Shown here piece after piece: positions 3,115 through 16,810 of a stretch of DNA of 63,290 nucleotides. The stretch is from Thermoplasmatota archaeon. GTDB taxonomy: Archaea; Thermoplasmatota; SW-10-69-26; JACQPN01; JAJPHT01. Location of the stretch: positions 1 to 63,290 of the forward strand of contig DATLCC010000109.1 of assembly GCA_035526585.1 (NCBI GenBank), in the 5' to 3' direction. Position 1 is the stretch's first letter, and every line of letters begins with the position of its first letter. The notes under the pieces are model-generated. The model saw only the letters and a list, made by a program, of their open reading frames with translations. It searched no databases and was not told the origin of the DNA. The position numbers were made by a program, and so were the translations under genes.

Positions 3115-3396
3115 CTATGCTCTCGCGAGGGATGGGGTTTCGGTGTCACCGCGCGGGACACCGGCATCCACCGCCTGTACGGCTAAGACGTGATTCTATC
3201 CCTTTGAATCGGAAAAGCGTAACTCTGTACGGATTTCTTGAATCCTGACCAGGTTTTGCGCGTATCGCTCGCAAAAGGGTGGCGGGCGCGCTCGACGCTC
3301 ACGAGCTGATATGACGGCAGGGCAAGGGGGTGGTGCTGTGCGCCCCGAACCGCCGAAACGAGGCGTGGACTTATGTCGCGACGAAAAGCGGTGAAA

Positions 3397-3444
3397 CTAA
3401 CTAGTCCCGTCACTAGACAAGTCACTAGGCAGGTCACTAGATGG
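3397..3444 (+). repeat. 12-bp iterons GTCACTAG-N4 (3 full copies plus one partial ACTAG copy)
   Basis: taACTAGtccc GTCACTAGacaa GTCACTAGgcag GTCACTAGatgg. The last copy contains the ATG (3441) of the AbrB-like gene. It lies at the end of a low-GC spacer. Confidence 0.8.
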
Positions 3445-3758
3445 GGATGGAAACGCGCGTTTGGAGGACCGGATACGAAACCAACCTGCTCACCACCGTG
3501 CCGAAAGCCGTCCGCGAGCAGCTCGCCCTCACCCACGACGACCGGATCCGATGGAGCGTCGAAGGGGGGTTCGCCCGCGTCGCCAAAGCCGGCGCCGACG
3601 ACGGCGAGGCCACGACCTACCGGCTGTACAAGCAGACGCGCGGAAACAGCCTCTACACAACGCTCCCCGCATCGGTGGTCGAGCAGCTGCGCATGACCGA
3701 CCGCTCGCGGGTCGAGTGGGAGCTCCAAGGTGGGATCGCGCACGTCCGCAAGGCTTGA
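3441..3758 (+). CDS. tandem SpoVT/AbrB-like DNA-binding protein
   Basis: 105 aa with two AbrB-like segments (TTVPKAVREQLALTHDDRIRWSV and TTLPASVVEQLRMTDRSRVEWEL) in one chain. Confidence 0.6.
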   Translation: MGMETRVWRTGYETNLLTTVPKAVREQLALTHDDRIRWSVEGGFARVAKAGADDGEATTYRLYKQTRGNSLYTTLPASVVEQLRMTDRSRVEWELQGGIAHVRKA

Positions 3759-3759
3759 G

Positions 3760-4617
3760 GTGCCCCAACCGGACACGAAGCCGGCCATCGTCCTCGACAG
3801 CTCGTACGAGCTTTCGAACGAAATTTCGAAAATTCGATTCCGCGTGCTGACGCGCGTATCCGACGACAAGCTCCGATCCATCCCTCAGCAGCTCGCGGAC
3901 TGCGCGGCCTACGTCCAAGGGCTGACGCGCGACGCCGTGATCGACGGGCTCTACAACCTGGGCGAGCACTCCGGCTTCTCGATGACGGAAAGCGAGGTCT
4001 ACCGGCGCATGCTCGACGACGCGCGCGCCGGCAAGTTCCACGCGCTCGTCGTCCGCGACACGAGCCGCCTCGGCCGCGACTACTGGGAGAAGCTTGGCAC
4101 CCTCCGCGACCTGCGCAGCGCCAAGATCGAGTTCCACGTCGTCGAAGACGGCGGCCGCTTCGATTTCGAAGACCGCCTCTCCAAGGTCAAGAGCTGGGCG
4201 AGCACGTGGGCCGACGAGGAGAAAAAGAAAGAAGAGATCCGGAAGTCGCTGCGAGCCACAGAAGCGCGCCGCGAGATGGGCTTCCCCACGGTACCCCCGC
4301 CGCTGGGCTATCGCGTCGTACGCGATCCCGACATGGGCCGCAAGGTGTGGAAGCTGGACGCAGCCGCCGCCAAGGTGAGCGCCTTGTTCGATGCCTTCGT
4401 CGCCGAGCCCGCCCTCACGTTCTCCGAGCTCGGCCGCCGGTGCGGGCTCGACGCGAAGCAGGTCGCACGCGCGCTCCGTAACCGCGCCTACACCGGGGGC
4501 TTCGTGTGGCAGGGAGGCTTCCGTCGCTGCGCGCCGGAAGTGGTACCTGCGATCGTGGACGAGGGGACGTTCGAGCGGGCGCAGGCCGCGCTCGCGGCCA
4601 GGCGGGACGACGCGTAG
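3760..4617 (+). CDS. serine recombinase (resolvase catalytic domain + recombinase domain), copy 1
   Basis: RVSDDKLRS nucleophile region, VVRDTSRLGRDYWE block, then LGYRV...LRNRAYTGGFVW recombinase-domain-like part. GTG 3760 lies 2 nt after the AbrB-like stop (track start 3730 is the longest alternative). No zinc-ribbon or coiled-coil tail. Confidence 0.8.
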   Translation: MPQPDTKPAIVLDSSYELSNEISKIRFRVLTRVSDDKLRSIPQQLADCAAYVQGLTRDAVIDGLYNLGEHSGFSMTESEVYRRMLDDARAGKFHALVVRDTSRLGRDYWEKLGTLRDLRSAKIEFHVVEDGGRFDFEDRLSKVKSWASTWADEEKKKEEIRKSLRATEARREMGFPTVPPPLGYRVVRDPDMGRKVWKLDAAAAKVSALFDAFVAEPALTFSELGRRCGLDAKQVARALRNRAYTGGFVWQGGFRRCAPEVVPAIVDEGTFERAQAALAARRDDA

Positions 4618-4672
4618 GACCCACGCGGGGGCCGGGTGGCGCCCGGGTGAGGCCACGCGGGTCGACGCGTGG
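4598..4672 (+). repeat. CACGTG-unit intergenic repeat, copy A
   Basis: GCCAGGCGGGACGACGCGTAG (supplies the recombinase stop codon), then CCACGCGGGGG CCGGGTGGC GCCCGGGTGAGG CCACGCGG GTCGACGCGTGGC. Confidence 0.75.
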
Positions 4673-4733
4673 CTGCGCCTGGCAAAGAGGCGGGGAAACT
4701 GTTCATATCTCCGAGCTGCCTCCTTGGGCGCGC

Positions 4734-5078
4734 ATGAACCGCCGCCGCGTCACCACCCGCATGATCCGCCTCTCCCTCGTCCGCTCGCGCATCAAGCTAC
4801 GCATCCTCTTCGCGCTCCTGGACCTGGGAGAGGCGAGCCTCGCGGACCTCGCCCGCGAGGCGCGTGCCAAGCCCGCCCACGTCGAGGGCGCGCTTTTTGG
4901 AGATGGCGTCGCCTTCCGCACAAGCACGGCCCTCGTCGCCTTGGGGCTCGTCCGCGTGCGAGAGAGCGTCTTCTCGCGAACTGCGACCCTCACGCCGCGT
5001 GGTCGCTCCGTCGCCACCGTGTGGCGACGCGAATCCACCCGCGCGACGCTCGGCCTCGCGCGCCACCCGCATGCGTGA
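4734..5078 (+). CDS. winged-helix (ArsR/TrmB-like) DNA-binding protein
   Basis: 114 aa from ATG 4734. RIKLRILFALLDLGEASLADLAREA looks like a wHTH. The upstream part of track ORF 4506.. is repeat-derived Arg/Gly-rich sequence. Confidence 0.55.
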   Translation: MNRRRVTTRMIRLSLVRSRIKLRILFALLDLGEASLADLAREARAKPAHVEGALFGDGVAFRTSTALVALGLVRVRESVFSRTATLTPRGRSVATVWRRESTRATLGLARHPHA

Positions 5079-5083
5079 GACGT

Positions 5084-5146
5084 CCACGTGGCCCCACTTC
5101 AGGACACGTGGCATCCACGTGGGGGCCACACGGGGCGACGCGTGGC
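5084..5146 (+). repeat. CACGTG-unit intergenic repeat, copy B
   Basis: CCACGTGGC CCCACTTCAGGA CACGTGGCAT CCACGTGGGGG CCACACGG GGCGACGCGTGGC. Confidence 0.75.
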
Positions 5147-5226
5147 GCGTTGCGCGACTTTCGGTTCGCTCCGCCTCGTTTCGACTTCGGAGCCTTCTTA
5201 ATCCTCCGCAGTGTCTTGCGCCTTGG

Positions 5227-6225
5227 ATGCACACGCTCGACGCCTTTCTCGCTGAGGTCGATCGCCGCCTGAAGGATGGCGAGGATCGCGATCCTCGCGT
5301 CATCGATCTCCTGCGCCCGGAAGAGACCGCGGCGTTCCGCGCGCGTGGCGCGCGGGTCTACCGCGTCCTCGCGCGCATCAGCGACGACAAGCTGCTGAGC
5401 ATCCCGCAGCAGGTCAAGGAATGCGTCCGATACGCCTGGGGTGACGTCGTCGGCGGCGTCCGTCGCGTGGATGCGGAAACGGTCGGAGGCGTCGTCGACC
5501 GGATCTACAGCCTCGGTGAGCATTCGGGATTCAAGATCGATCAGTCGCCTGTGATGCGTCGCGTCCTTCAGGAGGCGGAAACGCACGAATTCGACGCGCT
5601 CGTCGCTCGCGACGGCGCTCGTCTAGGCCGTGACTATTGGGAGAAGATGGGCACGATCCGGGACTTCCGCCGCTCGAAGGTGGAGCTCCACATCATCGAG
5701 GATGGCGGCTTCTTCGACTACGAGGATTCCATGAACAAGGTCCGTTCCTTCGCGAACACGTGGGGAGACGAGGGAAAGAAGCTCGAGGAGATCCGCAAGT
5801 CGATGAAGGCGACGCAGGCGATCCGCGACGCGCGCTTCCCGACGACGTCGCTCCCGTTCGGCTACGAGCCGGCCGTCGATGCGGTGAGCCGCCGCAAGGT
5901 GTGGCGCCCGACGCCCGAGGCGGAGGTCGTTCGCAGCGTCTTCCGCTCGATCAAAGAGGAGCCCTACGAGGAGTTCAGCTCCCTCTCGCGCCGACACGGC
6001 ATCAGCCGGCAGCTTCTGCGCAAGATCCTCCGCAACCGCGCTTATACGGGCGGATTCAACTGGAAGGGGCAGTTCGTGCGCTGCGAGACCCACGTCATCC
6101 CGCCCCTCGTGGACGAGGTCACGTTCGAGGAGGTCCAGCGGATCCTCACCCGCCGCGAGATGACGGCACGGATCCGGAGCCCGGACCTGATGAACGTCAT
6201 CCTCGGTTTCAGCCAGCAGAGCTAG
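5227..6225 (+). CDS. serine recombinase, copy 2 (paralog of 3760..4617)
   Basis: Shares blocks with copy 1 (LGEHSGF, RLGRDYWEK-GT-RD, EDGG-FD-ED, LRNRAYTGGF-W) and has the RISDDKLLS nucleophile region. ATG 5227 was chosen because the longer track ORF (4864..) overlaps the wHTH gene and repeat B. Confidence 0.8.
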   Translation: MHTLDAFLAEVDRRLKDGEDRDPRVIDLLRPEETAAFRARGARVYRVLARISDDKLLSIPQQVKECVRYAWGDVVGGVRRVDAETVGGVVDRIYSLGEHSGFKIDQSPVMRRVLQEAETHEFDALVARDGARLGRDYWEKMGTIRDFRRSKVELHIIEDGGFFDYEDSMNKVRSFANTWGDEGKKLEEIRKSMKATQAIRDARFPTTSLPFGYEPAVDAVSRRKVWRPTPEAEVVRSVFRSIKEEPYEEFSSLSRRHGISRQLLRKILRNRAYTGGFNWKGQFVRCETHVIPPLVDEVTFEEVQRILTRREMTARIRSPDLMNVILGFSQQS

Positions 6226-6249
6226 TCTCGGAACCTTCGATGACCCCTC

Positions 6250-6286
6250 CCGGCGACCACCATGCGGGTCGCCGGAGAGCGTTTTT
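6250..6286 (+). terminator. hairpin plus T-run after recombinase 2
   Basis: CCGGCGACC (6250-6258) / GGTCGCCGG (6267-6275) with an 8-nt loop, then TTTTT at 6282-6286. Confidence 0.4.
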
Positions 6287-6289
6287 CTC

Positions 6290-6880
6290 GTGCTTTCCAC
6301 CGCCCCGACGGTCATCCCTTTTCTTGCGGAGGGTCAGGTGCGGCCAGGTGACGCCACCTTCTCCCTGGTGCTCTCCTCCTCGGCCCTGCTCGCCGAATTC
6401 GAAGCGCGCCTGCTCCTCGACGCGGCCGCCCGGGGGCAGGATTCCGTCCTCATCTGCGGCGACAACCGTCTCGATGCCTACGGTCTCCTAGCCCGCGCCC
6501 GCGCCATGGGCATCGAGGACGCACTCGCCGACGGCGTGCACCTGGCTCGCGCGTTCACGCTCCACCAGTTCGTCGCGCTCGTCGAGGAGACGCTGCCGCG
6601 CATGGCGCGCGAAACGGACGCCTCGCTCGCTCTCGTCACGGGGTCGCTCGACCTGTTCGCCGACGAGGACGTGACCGAAGCCGAGGCCCGTGTCCTTCTC
6701 CCGCGGATGATGCGACGGCTGGGCGCGCTCGCGCACCGGGACATGATCGTCGTCGCGACCGGCGATGCGCGTTCGCGGCACGCTGACCTCGCGCGCGAGC
6801 ACGCTCCCCACCGCGAGATCTCCAGGATCGCGCCCTCCGCGCGCCAGCCGCGCCTCGACGCGTTCGTGGAGGTGGCATGA
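6290..6880 (+). CDS. RecA-fold (RadB/KaiC-like) protein lacking a P-loop
   Basis: 196 aa with a RadB-like layout by eye (IPFLAEG-VRPGD..., LALVTGSLDLF, IVVATGD). No GxxxxGK[ST]: the position reads LVLSSSALLAE. No clear Walker-B Asp. ATGA overlap with the next ORF. Confidence 0.45.
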   Translation: MLSTAPTVIPFLAEGQVRPGDATFSLVLSSSALLAEFEARLLLDAAARGQDSVLICGDNRLDAYGLLARARAMGIEDALADGVHLARAFTLHQFVALVEETLPRMARETDASLALVTGSLDLFADEDVTEAEARVLLPRMMRRLGALAHRDMIVVATGDARSRHADLAREHAPHREISRIAPSARQPRLDAFVEVA

Positions 6881-7128
6881 TGGGGCGGACCATGCCCACC
6901 TCCCGCGACATCCTGGACCGTCTCGAGTTCGAGTGGCGCGATTTCCGTCGGGGCCTCACCGGCGCCGAGCAGGCGCGCTTCGATGCGCTCTGGCAGATGG
7001 CGCGCGCGCACGCGAGCGCGATGTCGAACCAGGCGCCGCTCGACCCGATGCAGGCCGCGCTCCTGTCGATGCTCCTGGAGTTGCAGAAGGAGGTGGAAGC
7101 GTTACGGAAGGCGTCCTCCTCGACGTGA
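6877..7128 (+). CDS. small helical hypothetical protein
   Basis: 83 aa. Its start overlaps the upstream stop (ATGA) and its TGA overlaps the GTG of the polymerase gene (GTGA). Composition is normal. Confidence 0.45.
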   Translation: MMGRTMPTSRDILDRLEFEWRDFRRGLTGAEQARFDALWQMARAHASAMSNQAPLDPMQAALLSMLLELQKEVEALRKASSST

Positions 7129-9413
7129 CCCCCGACCCGCGTCGACGCGAGATGGTCGCATGGGTGAAGACGCCGACGCGCGTCGTCCCGACCCGGCACT
7201 CGTTCACGCCCGCGTTCTACGTCTCCGGTCCGCGACCCGCGCTCGAAGATCTCGCGCGCACCTTGCCGCTGCTTCCCGGCGTCGAGGCGCCCACCTGGGG
7301 ATCGCATCTTCTTGGCCTTGCGCCCGGTCATCGGCGCGCGCTCAAGGTCCCCGTACGCGACATGAAGCGTCTGATGCAAGTCGCGAAGATGGTGGACGCG
7401 CGCGGGGAGCACCGCGACTTCACGCTCTACGATGTGGATCTGCGCGCAAGCCAGCGCTTCTTCATGGAACGAGGACTGTTCCCTTTCGCGAACGTGCGCC
7501 TGGAGCCCGAGGGGCTCGTCGCGATCGACGATGCGTGGGATCTCCGCTACGACGTCCCTGCCCTCAGCGAGGTCCATCTGGACGTCGTGGTCGAGGACAT
7601 GGCTCGCCTCAAAGGCCCCATCGTGCACATCGAGATCGAGGGAGCGCACTTCGAGGGGAGGGAAGAGGATCTTCTGAGCGAGGCGCAGGCGCGTCTCCAC
7701 GCGCTCGATCCCGACGTCGTGCACACGGACGGCGGCGATCGCTGGATGCTCGACCATCTCGCGGCACGGGCGGCGATCCACGGTATCGCGTGGGACCTGG
7801 GGCGCGACGCGACGCTCTCCGTCCCGAGACGGCGCGCGCGGAGCTTCCATCAGTACGGGCACATCCGATACAGCGCGCCGACGCACCCACTGGTCGGGCG
7901 CATCCACGTCGATCACCAGTCGAGCTTCTTCTTCCGCGAATCGGGGCTCGCGGGGATCATCGATCTCGCCCGCATCTCAGGCGTGCCGTTGGGCGAGATC
8001 GCGCGCCTCGAAGCCGGGACCGCAGTGACCGCGATGCAGATCGGGCACGCGAAGCGCGCCGGCCGCTTGATCCCGTGGAAGAAGAACATGCCCGAGAAAC
8101 CAAAGACGCTGCGTTCTCTCGTCAAGGCCGACCGCGGCGGCTACATCTACGATCCTCGCGTCGGGCTCCACGAGGACGTCATCGAGCTCGACTTCTCCTC
8201 GCTCTACCCCGCGCTCATCGCGAAGCACAACCTCGGCGCGGAAACGATCCTCTGCTCGTGCTGCGACCCCCGCGAACTCGCTCCGGAGTGCTTCGTTCCC
8301 CAGATCGGCTTCCACGTGTGCGACAGGCAACAGGGGCTCGTGCCCCAGGTGCTCACGAAGCTCGTCCACCGCCGCTCTGAGCTCAAGAAGATGCGAAAGC
8401 GTGAGCGCAAAGGCACGCCCAAGTTCAACGAGTACAAGGGGCGTGTGGACGCGCTCAAATGGCTCAACGTCGTCTCCTTCGGCTATCAAGGCTACAAGAA
8501 CGCGCGCTTCGGCTGCATCGAAGCGCACGAGGCCACGTGCGCGTGGGCGCGCGAAGCGCTCCTCTCTGCCGCCGAGGTCGCCCGCGAGAGCGGCTACGAG
8601 GTGCTCCACGGCATCGTCGACAGCCTCTGGCTCGAAAGGACGACGCCGGCCGCCATCTCGGCCGAGGATCTCGCAGAACGCGTCGAGCAGGAGGTCGGCA
8701 TTCCCTTCGAGCCGCAAGGACGCTACCACTGGATCGTCTTCCTGCCCACGCGCGCCCACGTGGCGCCAGGTGCCCCCAGCATCGGGGCGCCCAACCGCTT
8801 CTACGGTCTCTTCGACAAGGAGCCCGACGCGCCCACCCGTAGCCAGGCCGGGCAGGACATCGACCACATCGCGGGCGGCGCGCTCAAGGTGCGCGGGGTC
8901 GAGCTTCGCCAGAGCAGCGCGCCGCAGGTGGTCGCCACGATCCAGGCAGCCTTCCTCGAGGCGCTCTGCAAGGCGAAGAGCGCCGCCGCGTTCCACGCCA
9001 TCATCCCCGACGCGTTCACGGCCGCACGCCCGCACGTGCGCCGGTTGCAGGAGGGCGCATACCCGCTCGAAGAGCTCGTCATCGAGATGAATGTCACGAG
9101 CGGCCTCGAAGGGCGCACCAGCATGACCCACACCACCGCCGCGCTGCACCAGATGAAGAAGCTCGGCCACGAGACCCCCGCCGGGGACCGCGTGCGCTAC
9201 GTCATCACCGACGCGGAGAGCCGCGACCCGGAGCAGCGCGTCCGCGTCGCCTCGCGCCTCCACGAAGGCACGCGCTACGACGCGGACGCGTACCTGACGC
9301 TTGTCGTGCGGGCTCTTACGAGCCTCCTGCTGCCCCTCGGGTATGACGAGGCGCTCGTGCGCGACGCGCTCACCGGCGCGCCGCGGCAGGTCGCGCTGCC
9401 GCGGGCACGGTGA
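7125..9413 (+). CDS. polB: family-B DNA polymerase with non-canonical motif C
   Basis: Motif A LDFSSLYPALI, motif B KWLNVVSFGYQGYKNARFG, motif C region VLHGIVDSLW (IVD where DTD is expected). Start set at GTG 7125 (alternative ATG 7152). The upstream part of track ORF 6765.. is Arg/Pro-rich junk overlapping two other genes. Confidence 0.88.
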   Translation: MTPDPRRREMVAWVKTPTRVVPTRHSFTPAFYVSGPRPALEDLARTLPLLPGVEAPTWGSHLLGLAPGHRRALKVPVRDMKRLMQVAKMVDARGEHRDFTLYDVDLRASQRFFMERGLFPFANVRLEPEGLVAIDDAWDLRYDVPALSEVHLDVVVEDMARLKGPIVHIEIEGAHFEGREEDLLSEAQARLHALDPDVVHTDGGDRWMLDHLAARAAIHGIAWDLGRDATLSVPRRRARSFHQYGHIRYSAPTHPLVGRIHVDHQSSFFFRESGLAGIIDLARISGVPLGEIARLEAGTAVTAMQIGHAKRAGRLIPWKKNMPEKPKTLRSLVKADRGGYIYDPRVGLHEDVIELDFSSLYPALIAKHNLGAETILCSCCDPRELAPECFVPQIGFHVCDRQQGLVPQVLTKLVHRRSELKKMRKRERKGTPKFNEYKGRVDALKWLNVVSFGYQGYKNARFGCIEAHEATCAWAREALLSAAEVARESGYEVLHGIVDSLWLERTTPAAISAEDLAERVEQEVGIPFEPQGRYHWIVFLPTRAHVAPGAPSIGAPNRFYGLFDKEPDAPTRSQAGQDIDHIAGGALKVRGVELRQSSAPQVVATIQAAFLEALCKAKSAAAFHAIIPDAFTAARPHVRRLQEGAYPLEELVIEMNVTSGLEGRTSMTHTTAALHQMKKLGHETPAGDRVRYVITDAESRDPEQRVRVASRLHEGTRYDADAYLTLVVRALTSLLLPLGYDEALVRDALTGAPRQVALPRAR

Positions 9414-9523
9414 TGCCACACGGGACGACGCCTGGCGCCCACGTGTGTGCTATGTGGCGCCCACGTGGGGCCACGTGGGCCCACGTGGCGCCCACCTGGG
9501 TGCCACACGGGACGACGCCTGGC
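9414..9523 (+). repeat. CACGTG-unit intergenic repeat, copy C (terminal module duplicated)
   Basis: TGCCACACGGGACGACGCCTGGC occurs at 9414-9436 and again at 9501-9523, bracketing GCCCACGTG-type units. The copy spans nearly the whole gap between the convergent polB and truD stops. Confidence 0.8.
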
Positions 9524-9529
9524 CCGGCC

Positions 9530-10825
9530 CTAGGCGAGCGCCGCCGCTTCGCTCTTCATGACCTCGCGCAGCACGCACGTCGCGTAGCTGCCTTTGAGGA
9601 GGAAGAACGACAGCTCCGCGTAGTCCCCGCCTGCGTCGTGTCCATCGGCGTAGCGGACGGGCCCGAGCGGCGCGAGGAGCTCGCGGCGTGTGCCGTACGA
9701 GGCGGCTTCCGGGAGGTGCGGGATCAGGAGGTCTTCGGGCGTCCAGCCCATCTCGGAGATGGCTTTGGCCTCGAGCTCGCCCATCGCGCCTTCGGCGAGG
9801 GCGATGTCGCTGCCATAAAGGACGCCCGTGACGAGCGCGCGGCCTTCGCGGCAGAGCTTCTGGACGCGCGTGTGGTTCTGTGCGGTGACTTTGTGTGGGC
9901 GGTCCTTGTCGGGGCGCCCCTCGGCGTCGAGGCCGAAGACGACGTCGCCCGTCTGCGGATCGTTGAGGCCGATGCCGGCGGCCATGCGACGCGCCACGAT
10001 GCGGTTGAAGACGAGGCTTTGCGCGGCGTAGACGAACATCGTCAGGAGGTTGCGCGGGAGGGAGAGGAGCGCGCCTTCGAAGTCGTCGGGGCGTTGCGAG
10101 AGGTGCCAGACCATCTGGCGCTCGAACTGGAGGTGGCGCGGGTAGAGCGGAAGCGCGGCCGGGCCGTCCTTCTCGTACGCGACACGGGCCGCGCGGCAGT
10201 CGGCCGGCTCGTCGGGGCTCGGGTTGCCGACGTAGAGCCGGACGGCTTCGCGCAGGTCGCCGCGGACGATCGCGATGCCTACCTTGTGCGTGACCGGGCG
10301 CGTCACCCCGAAGCGTTGGACGCCGAAGTAGTTGGGGAATCCGCCGGCGCTCTGGAGGCGCTCGATGATGTCGCGTCCCGAGCCTTCGTGCTGTCGGACC
10401 CTCACGACGAAGCGGTTGCCCACGAGCTCGCCGATCTTTGGCGCGCGGTCCACGCGCCGCGTCTCGAGGACCTCGACGTCCTTCATGGCGAGCGCGCGCA
10501 CCTGGGGCTCGGGCGCGCGCAGCGAGACGTATTGCGTGGTGATCGCGCGCTTGTCCTTCGTGCCGGCGAAGAAGATCGCTTCGCGCGAGATGCCGAGCTC
10601 GCGCGCAAGTTCCGCCATCAGGCGGTTCGTCTCCCAGTTGCGCACGCGAAGCGCTGCGACCGTGTACTTCCCCTCGGCCACGGGCGGAGGGAACGCGAGC
10701 GGGACCTCTTCGACGACGAAGTCCTCGGGGAAGGTCTTGAGACGCCCGCCGATCCCTGGCTCGTCCGTGAGGTACTGCTCGAGGCCTACGTCGCGCTCGA
10801 TGCCTGCGGGCGTCGGGCGGACCAT
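9530..10825 (-). CDS. truD: tRNA pseudouridine synthase TruD/Pus7 type
   Basis: 431 aa with FPEDFVVEEV and GTKDKRAITTQ (catalytic Asp motif). Confidence 0.9.
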   Translation of the reverse strand: MVRPTPAGIERDVGLEQYLTDEPGIGGRLKTFPEDFVVEEVPLAFPPPVAEGKYTVAALRVRNWETNRLMAELARELGISREAIFFAGTKDKRAITTQYVSLRAPEPQVRALAMKDVEVLETRRVDRAPKIGELVGNRFVVRVRQHEGSGRDIIERLQSAGGFPNYFGVQRFGVTRPVTHKVGIAIVRGDLREAVRLYVGNPSPDEPADCRAARVAYEKDGPAALPLYPRHLQFERQMVWHLSQRPDDFEGALLSLPRNLLTMFVYAAQSLVFNRIVARRMAAGIGLNDPQTGDVVFGLDAEGRPDKDRPHKVTAQNHTRVQKLCREGRALVTGVLYGSDIALAEGAMGELEAKAISEMGWTPEDLLIPHLPEAASYGTRRELLAPLGPVRYADGHDAGGDYAELSFFLLKGSYATCVLREVMKSEAAALA

Positions 10826-10833
10826 GGGCGCGC

Positions 10834-11115
10834 TCAGGCGCCAGTGGCGCGGACGAGGAGCGTCTCGAACTCGTCGAAGTGCTGGCGCAGGTCCTTCGCC
10901 GCGTTCTTGATGGCGGCGTCGGCCTTGCCGGACCGCATTTCGAAGACGAAGAGCGGGTTGTCGAGGTATGGGTGGCCCATGATGTAGGTGGCGCTCTCGA
11001 CGCCGGGGTCCTCGAGCAGGCGCTGCTTGAGGAGGTTGAGGAGCGTGTCGTTCTCCCCGATGAACTCGAGCTCCATCTTCTTGTCGGTCTTCGAGACCAG
11101 GCGCAGATCCATCAT
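10834..11115 (-). CDS. rpoL: DNA-directed RNA polymerase subunit L (Rpo11)
   Basis: 93 aa with LEFIGENDTLLNLL...ATYIMGHPYL. Sits in the conserved position next to csl4. Confidence 0.85.
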   Translation of the reverse strand: MMDLRLVSKTDKKMELEFIGENDTLLNLLKQRLLEDPGVESATYIMGHPYLDNPLFVFEMRSGKADAAIKNAAKDLRQHFDEFETLLVRATGA

Positions 11116-13326: not shown

Positions 13327-15294
13327 TCAGCTCACGAACGGGGCGGGAACGCTTCCGGCCTCGAAGTCGATGCCCGTCGGCCAGACCGCGTTGTTCTGCG
13401 AGGGGCTCGCGCCCGTGTACGCGTCCGCGCCGGCGAGGTCGAGGTAGACGCCGACCGTGTTGCCCGTGAGGCCTTCGCCGCCACCCAGCAGGATGCCGCG
13501 GCCGTGCGTGGAGCCGTAGTTGTTGGCGCCGCCGTTCGGGTGCGCTTCCATGAAGTGGCCGTCGTCGCCGGAGACGTCGAGGAAGACGCCTTCGCCTTCC
13601 GCGGGGCCGCCGAAGCCTTCGTTCATGGTCGCGACGCCGCGGGGGCTGCGCGTGTCGCCGAAGTAGTGGTCGTTGCCGCCCATCTCGAGGAAGACGCCGA
13701 GGCCCGCGAAGCTCGCGGTGCCGAAGGCGCAGTTGAGAAGTGGCACGATGAACGGGTTCTTCGCGCTCTCGACCGCCTGGTAATCGTCGTCGCCGCCGTC
13801 CTCGAAGAAGACGCCGGTGCCGCCGAACGCGCCGAAGCCGTACGCGTAGAAGTCGGTCGTCGTCGCATTGTCCCACGCGTAGTAGTCGTCTGACCCAAGG
13901 CCCGTGTCGGAGAGGACGCCGACGCCGCCGAAGAAGCCCGTGCCTCCGGGGTAGAGGCCCTGGAAGCGGCCGGAGCCGATGCCCGTGTCGAAGCCGTAGG
14001 AGAGCCACTCGTCGTCGCCGCTGCCGTCGGCCGAGATGCCGACGCCGCCCGCGTTGCCGAAGCCCTGCGCGAACGCCCAGATGCTGTTGCCGTGCGAGGT
14101 CACGTCGGCCTCGTACACGTCGTTCCCGACTGCGTCGATCTGGATGCCGACGCCCGCGAGGCCGTACCCCTGGGAGCCCGCGTCGATGTAGCCGAGGACG
14201 CCGCCCCAGAAGGGGCCGAGGCTCGCAGGCTGCACGAAGTTCGAAAGGTACGAGTCGCTGCCCGTCGCGTCGACGAGGACGCCGATGCCGCCGAGGCTGC
14301 CGGAGCCATCCACGTTCGTCGGGACGCCCGAGTAGGCGTACGTGTCGTCGCCCTGGAGGTCCACGACGACGCTCACGGCGAGGCCGTTGCAGTCGTGGAT
14401 GAGGTTCGCTGGGTCGGCGCACGCGCCGGCCGCGGTCGTGTGATAGACGTCGTTCCCGCTCGCGTCGACGATGAGGACCGGGTCGCGCTGGACGCTCGTG
14501 CGCTCGAAGGTGTCGTCGCCGGTCGAGCCGAGGACGACGAGGCCGTTCGGGTCGCTGAAGATCGGCGTGCTCGCCGCGGGCCACTCGAGGCCGGCGACGG
14601 CGGCGCGGAAGTCGTTCTGCGCCGCGACGATGGAGAGCGCGTTCGCGAGCGTCGCGTCGCGCTCGGTCGAGGTGAGCATGAGGTCGGGCGCGCCGCTCGC
14701 GGTCGGCACGCGGGCGACGACGCCCGTCGCGATGGGCGTCTGGGCCTCGTAGGCGACGGCGACGCTCTGCACGAGCTGCGCGAAGGGCGCGCGGATGTCC
14801 GCGGGCACGGCTGCGGCGCGCGCGTCGAGCTCGGCGCGCTGCGCGGCGGTCAGGGGGTGGCCCGCGGCGGCGTCGAGGCGCGCGACCTCGGTCGCGAGGT
14901 CAGCGGCTCCCGCAGGCTCGCCAGAGAGGGAAAGGAGGTTGTCGGCCTGGGCGAGGGAGACCCACTGCGCGACGGTGCGGCCGGCGCGCGGCTCGGCGTT
15001 GAGCGTCTGGCGCGCGACGTCGACGGGGGAGGCTCCGGCAAGGTCGAGGCGCCGCGGGTGGTCCAGCCCGTGGTCGGCAAGGTAGTGCTGCACGCGCGCG
15101 GCGAAGCGCGGGTCCTGCATGCCTTCGTAGGTGAGCTGGCCGAGCGACTTGCCTTGGAGGGGGTGGCCGGGCGCGGTCGCGTCGAGCGCGACGGGAGCGC
15201 GGAGAGCCGATCCGATGGTAGTGACGGAGACCAGAGCGATGAGGACGACGAGGACGATGGAGCGCGAGATGCGACTACCTCCCATGCCCCCCAC
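13327..15294 (-). CDS. secreted repeat protein with G-[NDS]-D-x-[YW] motifs
   Basis: 655 aa with an N-terminal anchor or signal. About ten motifs (GNDVY, GDDTY, GSDSY, GNDVY, GDDEW, GSDDY, GDDDY, GNDHY, GDDGH, GADAY). Ends 9 nt upstream of the cupredoxin gene. ATG 15285 is an alternative start. Confidence 0.7.
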   Translation of the reverse strand: MGGMGGSRISRSIVLVVLIALVSVTTIGSALRAPVALDATAPGHPLQGKSLGQLTYEGMQDPRFAARVQHYLADHGLDHPRRLDLAGASPVDVARQTLNAEPRAGRTVAQWVSLAQADNLLSLSGEPAGAADLATEVARLDAAAGHPLTAAQRAELDARAAAVPADIRAPFAQLVQSVAVAYEAQTPIATGVVARVPTASGAPDLMLTSTERDATLANALSIVAAQNDFRAAVAGLEWPAASTPIFSDPNGLVVLGSTGDDTFERTSVQRDPVLIVDASGNDVYHTTAAGACADPANLIHDCNGLAVSVVVDLQGDDTYAYSGVPTNVDGSGSLGGIGVLVDATGSDSYLSNFVQPASLGPFWGGVLGYIDAGSQGYGLAGVGIQIDAVGNDVYEADVTSHGNSIWAFAQGFGNAGGVGISADGSGDDEWLSYGFDTGIGSGRFQGLYPGGTGFFGGVGVLSDTGLGSDDYYAWDNATTTDFYAYGFGAFGGTGVFFEDGGDDDYQAVESAKNPFIVPLLNCAFGTASFAGLGVFLEMGGNDHYFGDTRSPRGVATMNEGFGGPAEGEGVFLDVSGDDGHFMEAHPNGGANNYGSTHGRGILLGGGEGLTGNTVGVYLDLAGADAYTGASPSQNNAVWPTGIDFEAGSVPAPFVS

Positions 15295-16757: not shown

Positions 16758-16810
16758 CAGGTGGCGCCACGTGGGGACCACGTGGGGGCCAGGCGGGGAG
16801 ACGCGTGGCG
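16758..16810 (+). repeat. CACGTG-unit intergenic repeat, copy D
   Basis: CAGGTGGC GCCACGTGGGGA CCACGTGGGGG CCAGGCGG GGAGACGCGTGGC. Confidence 0.8.

Follow-up and report, generated by a model that had tools for sequence, protein, structure and literature searches.

The locus described here lies in a stretch of 63,290 nucleotides from a Thermoplasmatota archaeon (contig DATLCC010000109.1 of assembly GCA_035526585.1), which we call the window throughout, and it comprises three chained open reading frames (ORFs) on the forward strand, for which the gene names of the archaeal PolB2 operon are used. The first, iRadA (6290-6880), has a GTG start and encodes 196 aa, the second, PPB2, was listed with 83 aa (6877-7128) and is given here in its corrected form of 82 aa (6880-7128), and the third, PolB2 (7104..9413), is annotated from GTG 7125 (7125-9413, 762 aa), its conserved N-terminus being encoded from 7104. 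The GC content of the window is about 69%, and spurious ORFs are therefore plentiful; the three frames show a coding-type GC distribution over the codon positions, with a third-position GC (GC3) of 0.82-0.86, and their translations are sensible. A preliminary description of this DNA, made from the sequence alone, had joined the three frames by 4-nt overlaps, and both junctions, ATGA at 6877-6880 and GTGA at 7125-7128, are present in the sequence. The overlap between PPB2 and PolB2 is indeed 4 nt with the annotated GTG 7125, while that between iRadA and PPB2 shrinks to 1 nt after the start correction. A further ORF at 9410-10987, which overlaps PolB2 by 4 nt, was rejected as a fourth gene of the operon, as it is an antisense frame of the downstream gene TruD.

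The three proteins and their motifs

The iRadA protein as a single sequence matched nothing in Pfam, NCBIfam or the PDB, and its homology became visible only through a profile of its homologs and a structure model. Two of the 30 homologs retrieved are annotated with the Rad51 domain PF08423, and a profile from 24 homologs found RadA, RAD51 and DMC1 structures in the PDB (best 5jed, E = 1.9e-7). The AlphaFold2 (AF2) model, with a mean predicted local distance difference test (pLDDT) of 85.9 and a predicted template modelling score (pTM) of 0.80, has the Rad51/RadA ATPase core, and Foldseek placed it with RAD51, RadA, DMC1 and XRCC3 complexes at a probability of 1.00 and a query-based template modelling score (TMq) of 0.6-0.7. 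The core comprises residues 24-176; the N-terminus (residues 1-19) is disordered, and the N-terminal helix-hairpin-helix domain is absent. A deletion has removed the P-loop that would connect strand 1 with helix 1 (LVLS-SSA-LLAEF), and the Walker B sequence IVDS of RadA aligns with LVTGS, so that Gly118, invariant in the family, stands at the position of the Asp. Judged by sequence and model, iRadA is an ATPase-dead protein of the Rad51/RadA family, as the preliminary description had read it by eye. Its C-terminus, ...RQPRLDAFVEVA, contains a sequence like a PCNA-interacting peptide (PIP), QPRLDAFV at residues 186-193, that fits Q-x-x-L-x-x-F-V; a C-terminal Q-x-x-[LI]-x-x-F occurs in 13 of the 30 homologs, all ten closest included, and this tail probably tethers the complex to PCNA.

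PPB2 belongs to arCOG07300. All 36 homologs carry the Pfam family PF26485 (DUF8156) in precomputed annotations; our local Pfam scan of the listed 83-aa frame did not report DUF8156, and the assignment comes from the precomputed annotations of identical and homologous proteins. Because every homolog begins with M-G-R-T, and the identical database protein is called as 82 aa, the true start is most likely ATG 6880, which gives a TGATG junction with iRadA that recurs in four related loci (L001, L004, L006 and L007; L numbers denote loci of related genomes and P numbers PolB2 homolog proteins). A Shine-Dalgarno-like GGAGGTG, read from the sequence at 6868-6874 on the forward strand, lies 5 nt before this codon. 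With this start the N-terminal arm reads MGRTMPTSR, giving Arg3 and Arg9; G2, R3 and T4 never vary among the homologs, while M1 and R9 are conserved to at least 90%. The AF2 model (pLDDT 79) consists of the extended arm and three helices (8-24, 28-48 and 56-81), in keeping with the small helical protein expected, and a Foldseek search of it against the PDB gave nothing significant (best E 3.9), so the published resemblance to sigma factors was not reproduced.

PolB2 is a family-B polymerase (Pfam DNA_pol_B, 7.8e-24), and the same scan gave no match to the exonuclease domain DNA_pol_B_exo1. Motif A (DFSSLYP, with D356) and motif B (KWLNVVSFGYQGYKN) are intact, and motif C reads HGIVDS, in which the first Asp of DTD is replaced by Ile (I497) and the second, D499, is invariant. 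D356 and Y361 of motif A, K445 and N459 of motif B and D499 of motif C do not vary among 24 diverse homologs, and HG[IL][VI]D is present in 113 of the 120 homologs where the motif was located. The catalytic residues of the exonuclease are lost, with no DxE (ExoI), no YxxxD (ExoIII) and an ExoII reduced to GGDRW, so the polymerase is as divergent, and its catalytic motif as altered, as had been noticed at the outset. The best NCBIfam model, NF004418, on which the Haloarcula marismortui PolB2 reaches 1431 bits, scores 401 bits over the full length, NF004416 scores 339 bits, and the 'DNA polymerase I/II' models of the PolB1/B3 type score 75-132 bits; by these profile scores, rather than by a tree, the polymerase belongs to the PolB2 clade. 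Matches in the PDB are to replicative archaeal PolBs (1e-33), mainly over the palm and fingers (residues 280-516).

Two elements of PolB2 bear on its contacts with the partner proteins. The sequence ADRGGY contains D336-R337, with D336 invariant and R or K at position 337 across homologs, and by its relative position it would be the counterpart of 253-DK-254 in Dpo2 of Saccharolobus/Sulfolobus islandicus (Sis), which typifies the system. In the loop before it, the majority of homologs have [FW]-[KR]-x-A, chiefly FKTA (56 of 116), which resembles the Rad51 oligomerisation motif FxxA and which we take, on sequence likeness, as the probable counterpart of the published iRadA-docking element. The C-terminus of PolB2, RQVALPRAR, has no aromatic residues, and no canonical clamp motif is present there.

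Two further observations concern the polymerase. A cysteine cluster, C377-x-C379-C380...C399 (about 8253-8321), lies between motifs A and B and is invariant in the 24 diverse homologs; it might bind a metal or form a disulphide pair, and no discussion of it was noticed in the sections of the PolB2 literature at hand. In three Thermoplasmata PolB2 proteins of about 900 aa (P0114, P0125 and P0133), motif B is interrupted exactly between KWLLVT and FGY by some 170 aa that bear an intein annotation (PF14890).

Identity with the PolB2 operon

We consider it very probable that the trio is an ordinary chromosomal copy of the known archaeal PolB2 operon, in the order iRadA-PPB2-PolB2, and that it likely encodes a translesion polymerase complex. 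The preliminary description had found no described system of this composition, which proved mistaken: Makarova, Krupovic and Koonin (2014; PMC4104785) predicted operons that combine a PolB2 termed 'inactivated' with a RadA-family ATPase, also inactivated, and with arCOG07300, an alpha-helical protein of about 90 aa, and Timinskas et al. (2025; PMC11791011), who renamed the partners iRadA and PPB2, give iRadA-PPB2-PolB2 as a major gene order and model a PolB2:iRadA:PPB2(3) heteropentamer, the 'PolB2 mutasome', across archaea and bacteria. Among the hallmarks set out by the latter authors are the substitution of the first Asp of DxD with the second kept (401-IID-403 in the Sis protein), a decayed exonuclease domain, the PPB2 'MGRT' arm with Arg3 and Arg9, a D(K/R) motif in the PolB2 loop that contacts this arm, a beta-alpha motif like that of Rad51 oligomerisation that precedes D(K/R) and docks iRadA, and PCNA-binding motifs that are found more often at the iRadA C-terminus than on PolB2, a frequent but not universal feature. 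The assignment rests on the agreement of the three families, the commonest published gene order, MGRT with Arg3 and Arg9, the IVD of motif C, the decayed exonuclease, D(K/R), the ATPase-dead RadA core without its N-terminal domain and the PIP-like tail of iRadA with this description.

The arrangement is conserved well beyond the window. GTDB species genomes, scanned with the PolB alignment, gave 80 loci, 68 of them with at least 1.5 kb of upstream sequence, and in 63 of the 68 iRadA and PPB2 lie co-oriented just upstream of PolB2, with direct adjacency in 52 of these 63. The loci with the trio span Thermoplasmata, Methanomassiliicoccales, Bathyarchaeia, Halobacteriota and Thaumarchaeota, and include bacterial metagenome-assembled genomes (MAGs) of Nitrospirota, Methylomirabilales and Thermodesulfobacteriota; close relatives carry the same three genes. 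Three outcomes had been named beforehand as counting against the initial reading, namely a first protein without a RecA fold, a trio without conservation as neighbours, and an ordinary replicative PolB; the fold was found, the trio is conserved and the polymerase is of the PolB2 type. Genes next to the operon in relatives also fit a role in damage tolerance, as a DUF72 gene directly follows PolB2 in L004 (3298-4107), as in the literature, and UvrC lies divergently upstream of the operon in another clade (L002, 6784-8688; L006, 7866-9749). In L006 a SprT-like gene is located downstream (13480-13839).

It is unlikely, though worth weighing, that the polymerase is catalytically dead and that the trio forms a structural or regulatory complex acting at stalled forks or in origin/Orc function, an older reading of PolB2 from before 2020. 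Makarova et al. (PMC4104785) proposed just such an inactivation with a regulatory role and noted a link with arORC2, and the replaced first Asp of motif C and the lost exonuclease motifs agree with it, as does the viability of a polB2 deletion in H. volcanii. However, Sulfolobus Dpo2 carries the same I-x-D substitution and is, according to the introduction of PMC11791011, an active polymerase required for damage-induced mutagenesis. Moreover, the five residues of motifs A, B and C that are invariant in the 24 diverse homologs are unexpected for a dead site.

Several points weigh against the assignment to an ordinary PolB2 operon with translesion function. The window PolB2 scores below the trusted cut-offs of both NF004418 and NF004416. 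No orc1/cdc6 gene was found near the operon among the Pfam-scanned ORFs, which cover most of window 1-37,000. The operon has been lost in several close relatives and is thus dispensable, and the activity of a Thermoplasmatota PolB2 is extrapolated from Sulfolobales. In the loop before D(K/R), at residues 326-329 (about 8100-8111), the window and its sub-clade (19 of 116 homologs; P0067-P0084) have PKTL in place of the F/W-x-x-A sequence, and the interface with iRadA may differ or may have co-evolved. Finally, the start of polB2 is odd. The N-terminus typical of the family, M-x-(E/D)-G-x-(L/I)-L-D, can be read in frame ahead of GTG 7125 as ...V-T-E-G-V-L-L-D-V-T-P-D, in a coding stretch (TEGVLLD) that overlaps the end of PPB2 by 25 nt, and the homologous start position reads GTT 7101 followed by ACG 7104, with no ATG, GTG or TTG.

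The two closest relatives are likewise non-canonical at this position (GCT-ACG in L004 and CCT-ACG in L008), while L001, L006, L095 and P0069 have a canonical GTG or ATG. A second Shine-Dalgarno-like GGAGGTG at 7089-7095 on the forward strand precedes GTT 7101 and ACG 7104 by 5-8 nt and is kept in L004 (GGAGGTG) and L008 (GAGGTGA). Translation of polB2 may begin at GTG 7125, in which case the conserved strand would be dropped, or at a non-canonical codon such as ACG. Fusion of PPB2 to PolB2 through a -1 frameshift was also considered, since the PolB reading frame stays open and conserved ahead of position 7125; no slippery site could be seen, and the idea is unsupported.

In sum, the window differs from the published PolB2 operons in its Thermoplasmatota lineage, its longer polymerase, its PKTL loop, its lack of a canonical start at the conserved PolB2 N-terminus and its neighbours, which are a serine-recombinase cassette and TruD. 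For the PolB2 system it holds nothing conceptually new, and it adds modest details: the sub-clade variant of the presumed docking motif, the unusual polB2 start, the repeated loss at one site and the hint of an ANTTTC-like element.

Surroundings of the operon

Downstream of PolB2 the reverse strand carries TruD (9530-10825) and, according to the Pfam scan, RpoL, Csl4, a methyltransferase, DnaJ, DnaK and GrpE. Because of these TruD-RpoL-Csl4 and chaperone neighbours, and because homologs of the window proteins are labelled Thermoplasmatota, the window is archaeal chromosomal DNA. The region 3441-9413, which comprises a recombinase cassette and the PolB2 operon, has a GC3 of 0.81-0.87, below the 0.90-0.97 of the flanking housekeeping genes, which would suit either low expression or a foreign origin of older date.

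The cassette lies upstream of iRadA on the forward strand and consists of an AbrB/MazE-like gene (3441-3758), the small serine recombinase res1 (about 3745-4617), an EarA-like winged helix-turn-helix (wHTH) gene (4734-5078) and the serine recombinase res2 (5227-6225, 332 aa), which starts at ATG 5227 (MHTLDAF...). The two recombinases of the preliminary description are thus present; the 453-aa ORF at 4864-6225 that had been counted as one of them was rejected as a single gene, since it merges the EarA-like gene, which is read in another frame, with res2. The recombinases are paralogous (phmmer E about 1e-81), and in L007 and L008 the res2 orthologs share 49-53% identity with the res1 region of the window. 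Both keep the catalytic R-[VI]-S, and in both SRLGR replaces DRLSR. Just upstream of the AbrB-like gene, at 3395-3441, there is a tandem direct repeat of 23-24 nt, more AT-rich than is usual in this genome and rich in (G)TCACTAG(A), which is likely an operator or promoter.

About a dozen related metagenomic genomes have the cassette in this chromosomal position, with res2 as the best-conserved gene of the neighbourhood (80-94% protein identity), and in L007 and L008 the synteny also takes in a 148-aa ORF and a PKD-domain protein to its left. A metagenome scan with res2 gave nine more loci (L090-L098). Of these, L095 has the window's arrangement, with the PolB2 operon behind res2. The operon is missing from L090, L091 and L097, where TruD comes straight after res2 with spacers of 14, about 170 and about 680 nt, and also from L093 and L094, where res2 is inverted with respect to the flank on either side. 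In a neighbour-joining tree of res2 the operon-bearing genomes are basal and interleaved with operon-less ones, which fits an ancestral presence of the operon and at least two losses. Such repeated loss at one site agrees with the patchy, loss-prone distribution of PolB2 described by Makarova et al. (PMC4104785). The contigs of L001, L004 and L005 all break off 125-277 nt before iRadA, perhaps because the population is heterogeneous at this place. The cassette is retained in relatives without the operon and is a resident feature in its own right, and the site is prone to rearrangement.

We regard as quite far-fetched a functional coupling in which the recombinase pair and the AbrB- and EarA-like regulators would act on the operon, rearrangement would switch the polymerase cassette on and off, or in and out, within a population, and the loss of the polB2 start and the PKTL loop would be a further restraint or rewiring.

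There is a very slim chance that the trio serves replication or repair of an integrated mobile element bounded by the two serine recombinases, replication being one of the roles that had been proposed initially. Such an element would account for the recombinase, AbrB/MazE-like and wHTH genes immediately upstream, for the lowered GC3, for the presence or absence of the operon between res2 and TruD in close relatives together with the inversion of res2 in two of them, and for the canonical serine recombinase found just upstream of iRadA in the Halobacteriota MAG L014. However, the cassette keeps its chromosomal site with or without the operon, as L090, L091, L093, L094 and L097 show; the 'empty' sites are unequal in length, so excision would have been imprecise, and the res2 tree fits ancestral presence with repeated loss. 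The linkage of PolB2 with TruD-RpoL-Csl4 is kept in the more distant relatives L001 and L004, and in other clades UvrC takes the upstream position. No att-like repeats flanking the operon were found, the only shared repeat being a palindrome that occurs genome-wide and is like the repetitive extragenic palindromic (REP) type; no relatives of res2 were found in viral contigs, and a recombinase adjoins the operon in only one of the 80 GTDB loci.

The 64-nt spacer between res2 and iRadA contains a candidate promoter or damage-response element, ACCTTCGATGACCCCTCCC (6233..6251, forward strand), at -57 from the iRadA start, where the sequence reads ACCTTCGATGACCCC; the element is one mismatch from ANTTTC, the motif bound by Orc1-2 of Sulfolobales, through which the Dpo2 operon of these archaea is damage-inducible (PMC6061795). 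The element aligns with (N)NTTTC-N4-6-CCC in seven related loci. In the iRadA upstream regions of L001-L088, the composite NNTTTC[ACG]N2-6CCYC was found in 22 of 72 PolB2 operons (0.7 expected), clustered about -55 to -68 from the iRadA start, ACTTTC in 24 of 72 (3.2 expected) and ANTTTC at -110..-25 in 25 of 72 (4.8 expected), all against a background of random, mostly coding positions that overstates the enrichment. By analogy with Sulfolobales, the operon of the window could be damage-induced through this ANTTTC-like element. If real, it would mean that a damage-response element of the Orc1-2 type is conserved outside Crenarchaeota/Sulfolobales. A scan for sigma-70 promoters was uninformative, as the host is an archaeon. 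The same spacer holds a hairpin, CCGGCGACC-N8-GGTCGCCGG followed by TTTTT (6250..6289, forward strand), which is probably the terminator of res2 or a degenerate copy of the REP-like palindrome; it partly matches repeat family D5, and L008 has a hairpin of other sequence with a T-run at the same place.

The REP-like palindrome itself, GCCACRCGGGNCGACGCNTGGC, is 22 nt long with an 8-bp stem and a 6-nt loop, and occurs in 13 copies in the window (0.27 expected), at 4597-4618, 4652-4673, 5125-5146, 9415-9436 and 9502-9523 and further at 16788, 18412, 20535, 22890, 25569, 25635, 26948 and 29340. Most copies sit immediately beyond the end of a gene, such as those downstream of DnaK and GrpE, and they may be terminators or a genome-wide repeat family. 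The copies that flank the wHTH gene and lie downstream of PolB2 were considered as integron-like cassette sites, which was rejected given the 13 copies over 4.6-29 kb at the ends of unrelated housekeeping genes. Palindromic units of CCACGTG(G) cluster at 5085-5125 and 9437-9501, beside or between REP-like copies, and the block 9415-9523 downstream of PolB2 is made up of two REP-like copies flanking four such units.

Proposed function and comparison with known polymerase systems

Gene layout, protein folds, sequence motifs and the conservation of the three genes as neighbours were established from the sequences; the following picture of complex formation, translesion activity, PCNA binding and damage induction is drawn from the literature. 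Transcription of the operon would probably be damage-inducible, and the gene overlaps together with the internal Shine-Dalgarno-like motifs would couple the translation of the three genes. Going by homology to the Sulfolobales complex and by the structural models in the literature, one PolB2, one iRadA and a PPB2 trimer are expected to assemble. PolB2 would be the catalytic subunit without proofreading, extending mismatched or lesion-containing primer ends; this activity is expected because D356 and D499, two of the three classical carboxylates, are kept as in the active Sulfolobus Dpo2 (IID). iRadA would be an ATP-independent scaffold docked on the PolB2 loop just upstream of D(K/R), with its tail QPRLDAFV recruiting PCNA, and one PPB2 subunit would reach with its arm (MGRT, Arg3 and Arg9) into the PolB2-iRadA cleft beside the DNA. 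Of the roles suggested initially, damage tolerance is the probable one, while a replication module of an integrated element is at odds with the TruD-RpoL-Csl4 synteny.

That the polymerase is the ordinary replicative PolB3 of the lineage, preceded by two unrelated ORFs, has a negligible probability: a PolB of full length, in which N-terminal, palm, fingers and thumb regions can be recognised and whose best PDB matches are replicative archaeal PolBs, would agree with it, but this similarity lies mainly in the palm and fingers, the PolB1/B3-type models score far below the PolB2-type model, the upstream genes are conserved partners in nearly all loci with sufficient upstream sequence, the absence of the operon from close relatives is impossible for an essential replicase, and replicative PolB3 is an essential single-gene enzyme with intact ExoI-III and a YGDTDS motif C, none of which applies to the window PolB2. 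The PolB of casposons and pipolins is an active polymerase in an element with Cas1 or an integrase and with terminal repeats, whereas the window PolB2 has a dead exonuclease and occupies a syntenic chromosomal site, with no Cas1 among the Pfam-scanned ORFs (most of window 1-37,000) and no terminal repeats flanking the operon.

Outside the Thermoplasmatota, a close comparison is with the haloarchaeal loci. On pHMA155 of Haloarcula marismortui, tblastn gave the order iRadA-like, PPB2, a 130-aa ORF, PolB and orc1/cdc6 (WP_011222489, WP_011222488 and WP_011222486, then orc1/cdc6), which is the published haloarchaeal context and has its counterpart in H. volcanii at HVO_A0065. The Haloarcula PolB is 32% identical to that of the window over 98% of its length and shares HGIVD, DRGG and DFSSLYP, its PPB2 begins with MGRTNPTYRD and matches the window PPB2 profile at 9e-25, and its iRadA is longer (312 aa) and very divergent (3.5e-9). 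The haloarchaeal loci are on megaplasmids, with the extra 130-aa gene and the adjacent orc1/cdc6, whereas the window locus is chromosomal.

Among better-known damage-tolerance systems, E. coli Pol V (UmuD'2C-RecA) and ImuA-ImuB-DnaE2 (ImuABC) resemble the PolB2 operon in combining an error-prone polymerase with a RecA-family protein, which binds it through an oligomerisation-like motif, and with a small subunit that inserts an N-terminal arm. The likeness is one of analogy, as the catalytic subunits are not homologous: the polymerase of Pol V is of the Y family (UmuC) and that of ImuABC of the C family (DnaE2, with ImuB of the Y family), while the only polymerase of the window is of the B family. 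Furthermore, the RecA of Pol V is an active ATPase shared with recombination, unlike iRadA, and UmuD' and PPB2 are unrelated. The eukaryotic Pol zeta (Rev3-Rev7(2)-Pol31-Pol32) is likewise a B-family enzyme with a dead exonuclease, pentameric and a damage-induced 'extender', although its accessory subunits are unrelated and include no Rad51-like protein. The correct annotation turns two 'hypothetical proteins' and one 'DNA polymerase domain-containing protein' into a defined repair system, and places them with the PolB2 complex, which is regarded as the chief mutagenic polymerase that damage induces in many archaea and as a B-family counterpart of Pol V and Pol zeta.

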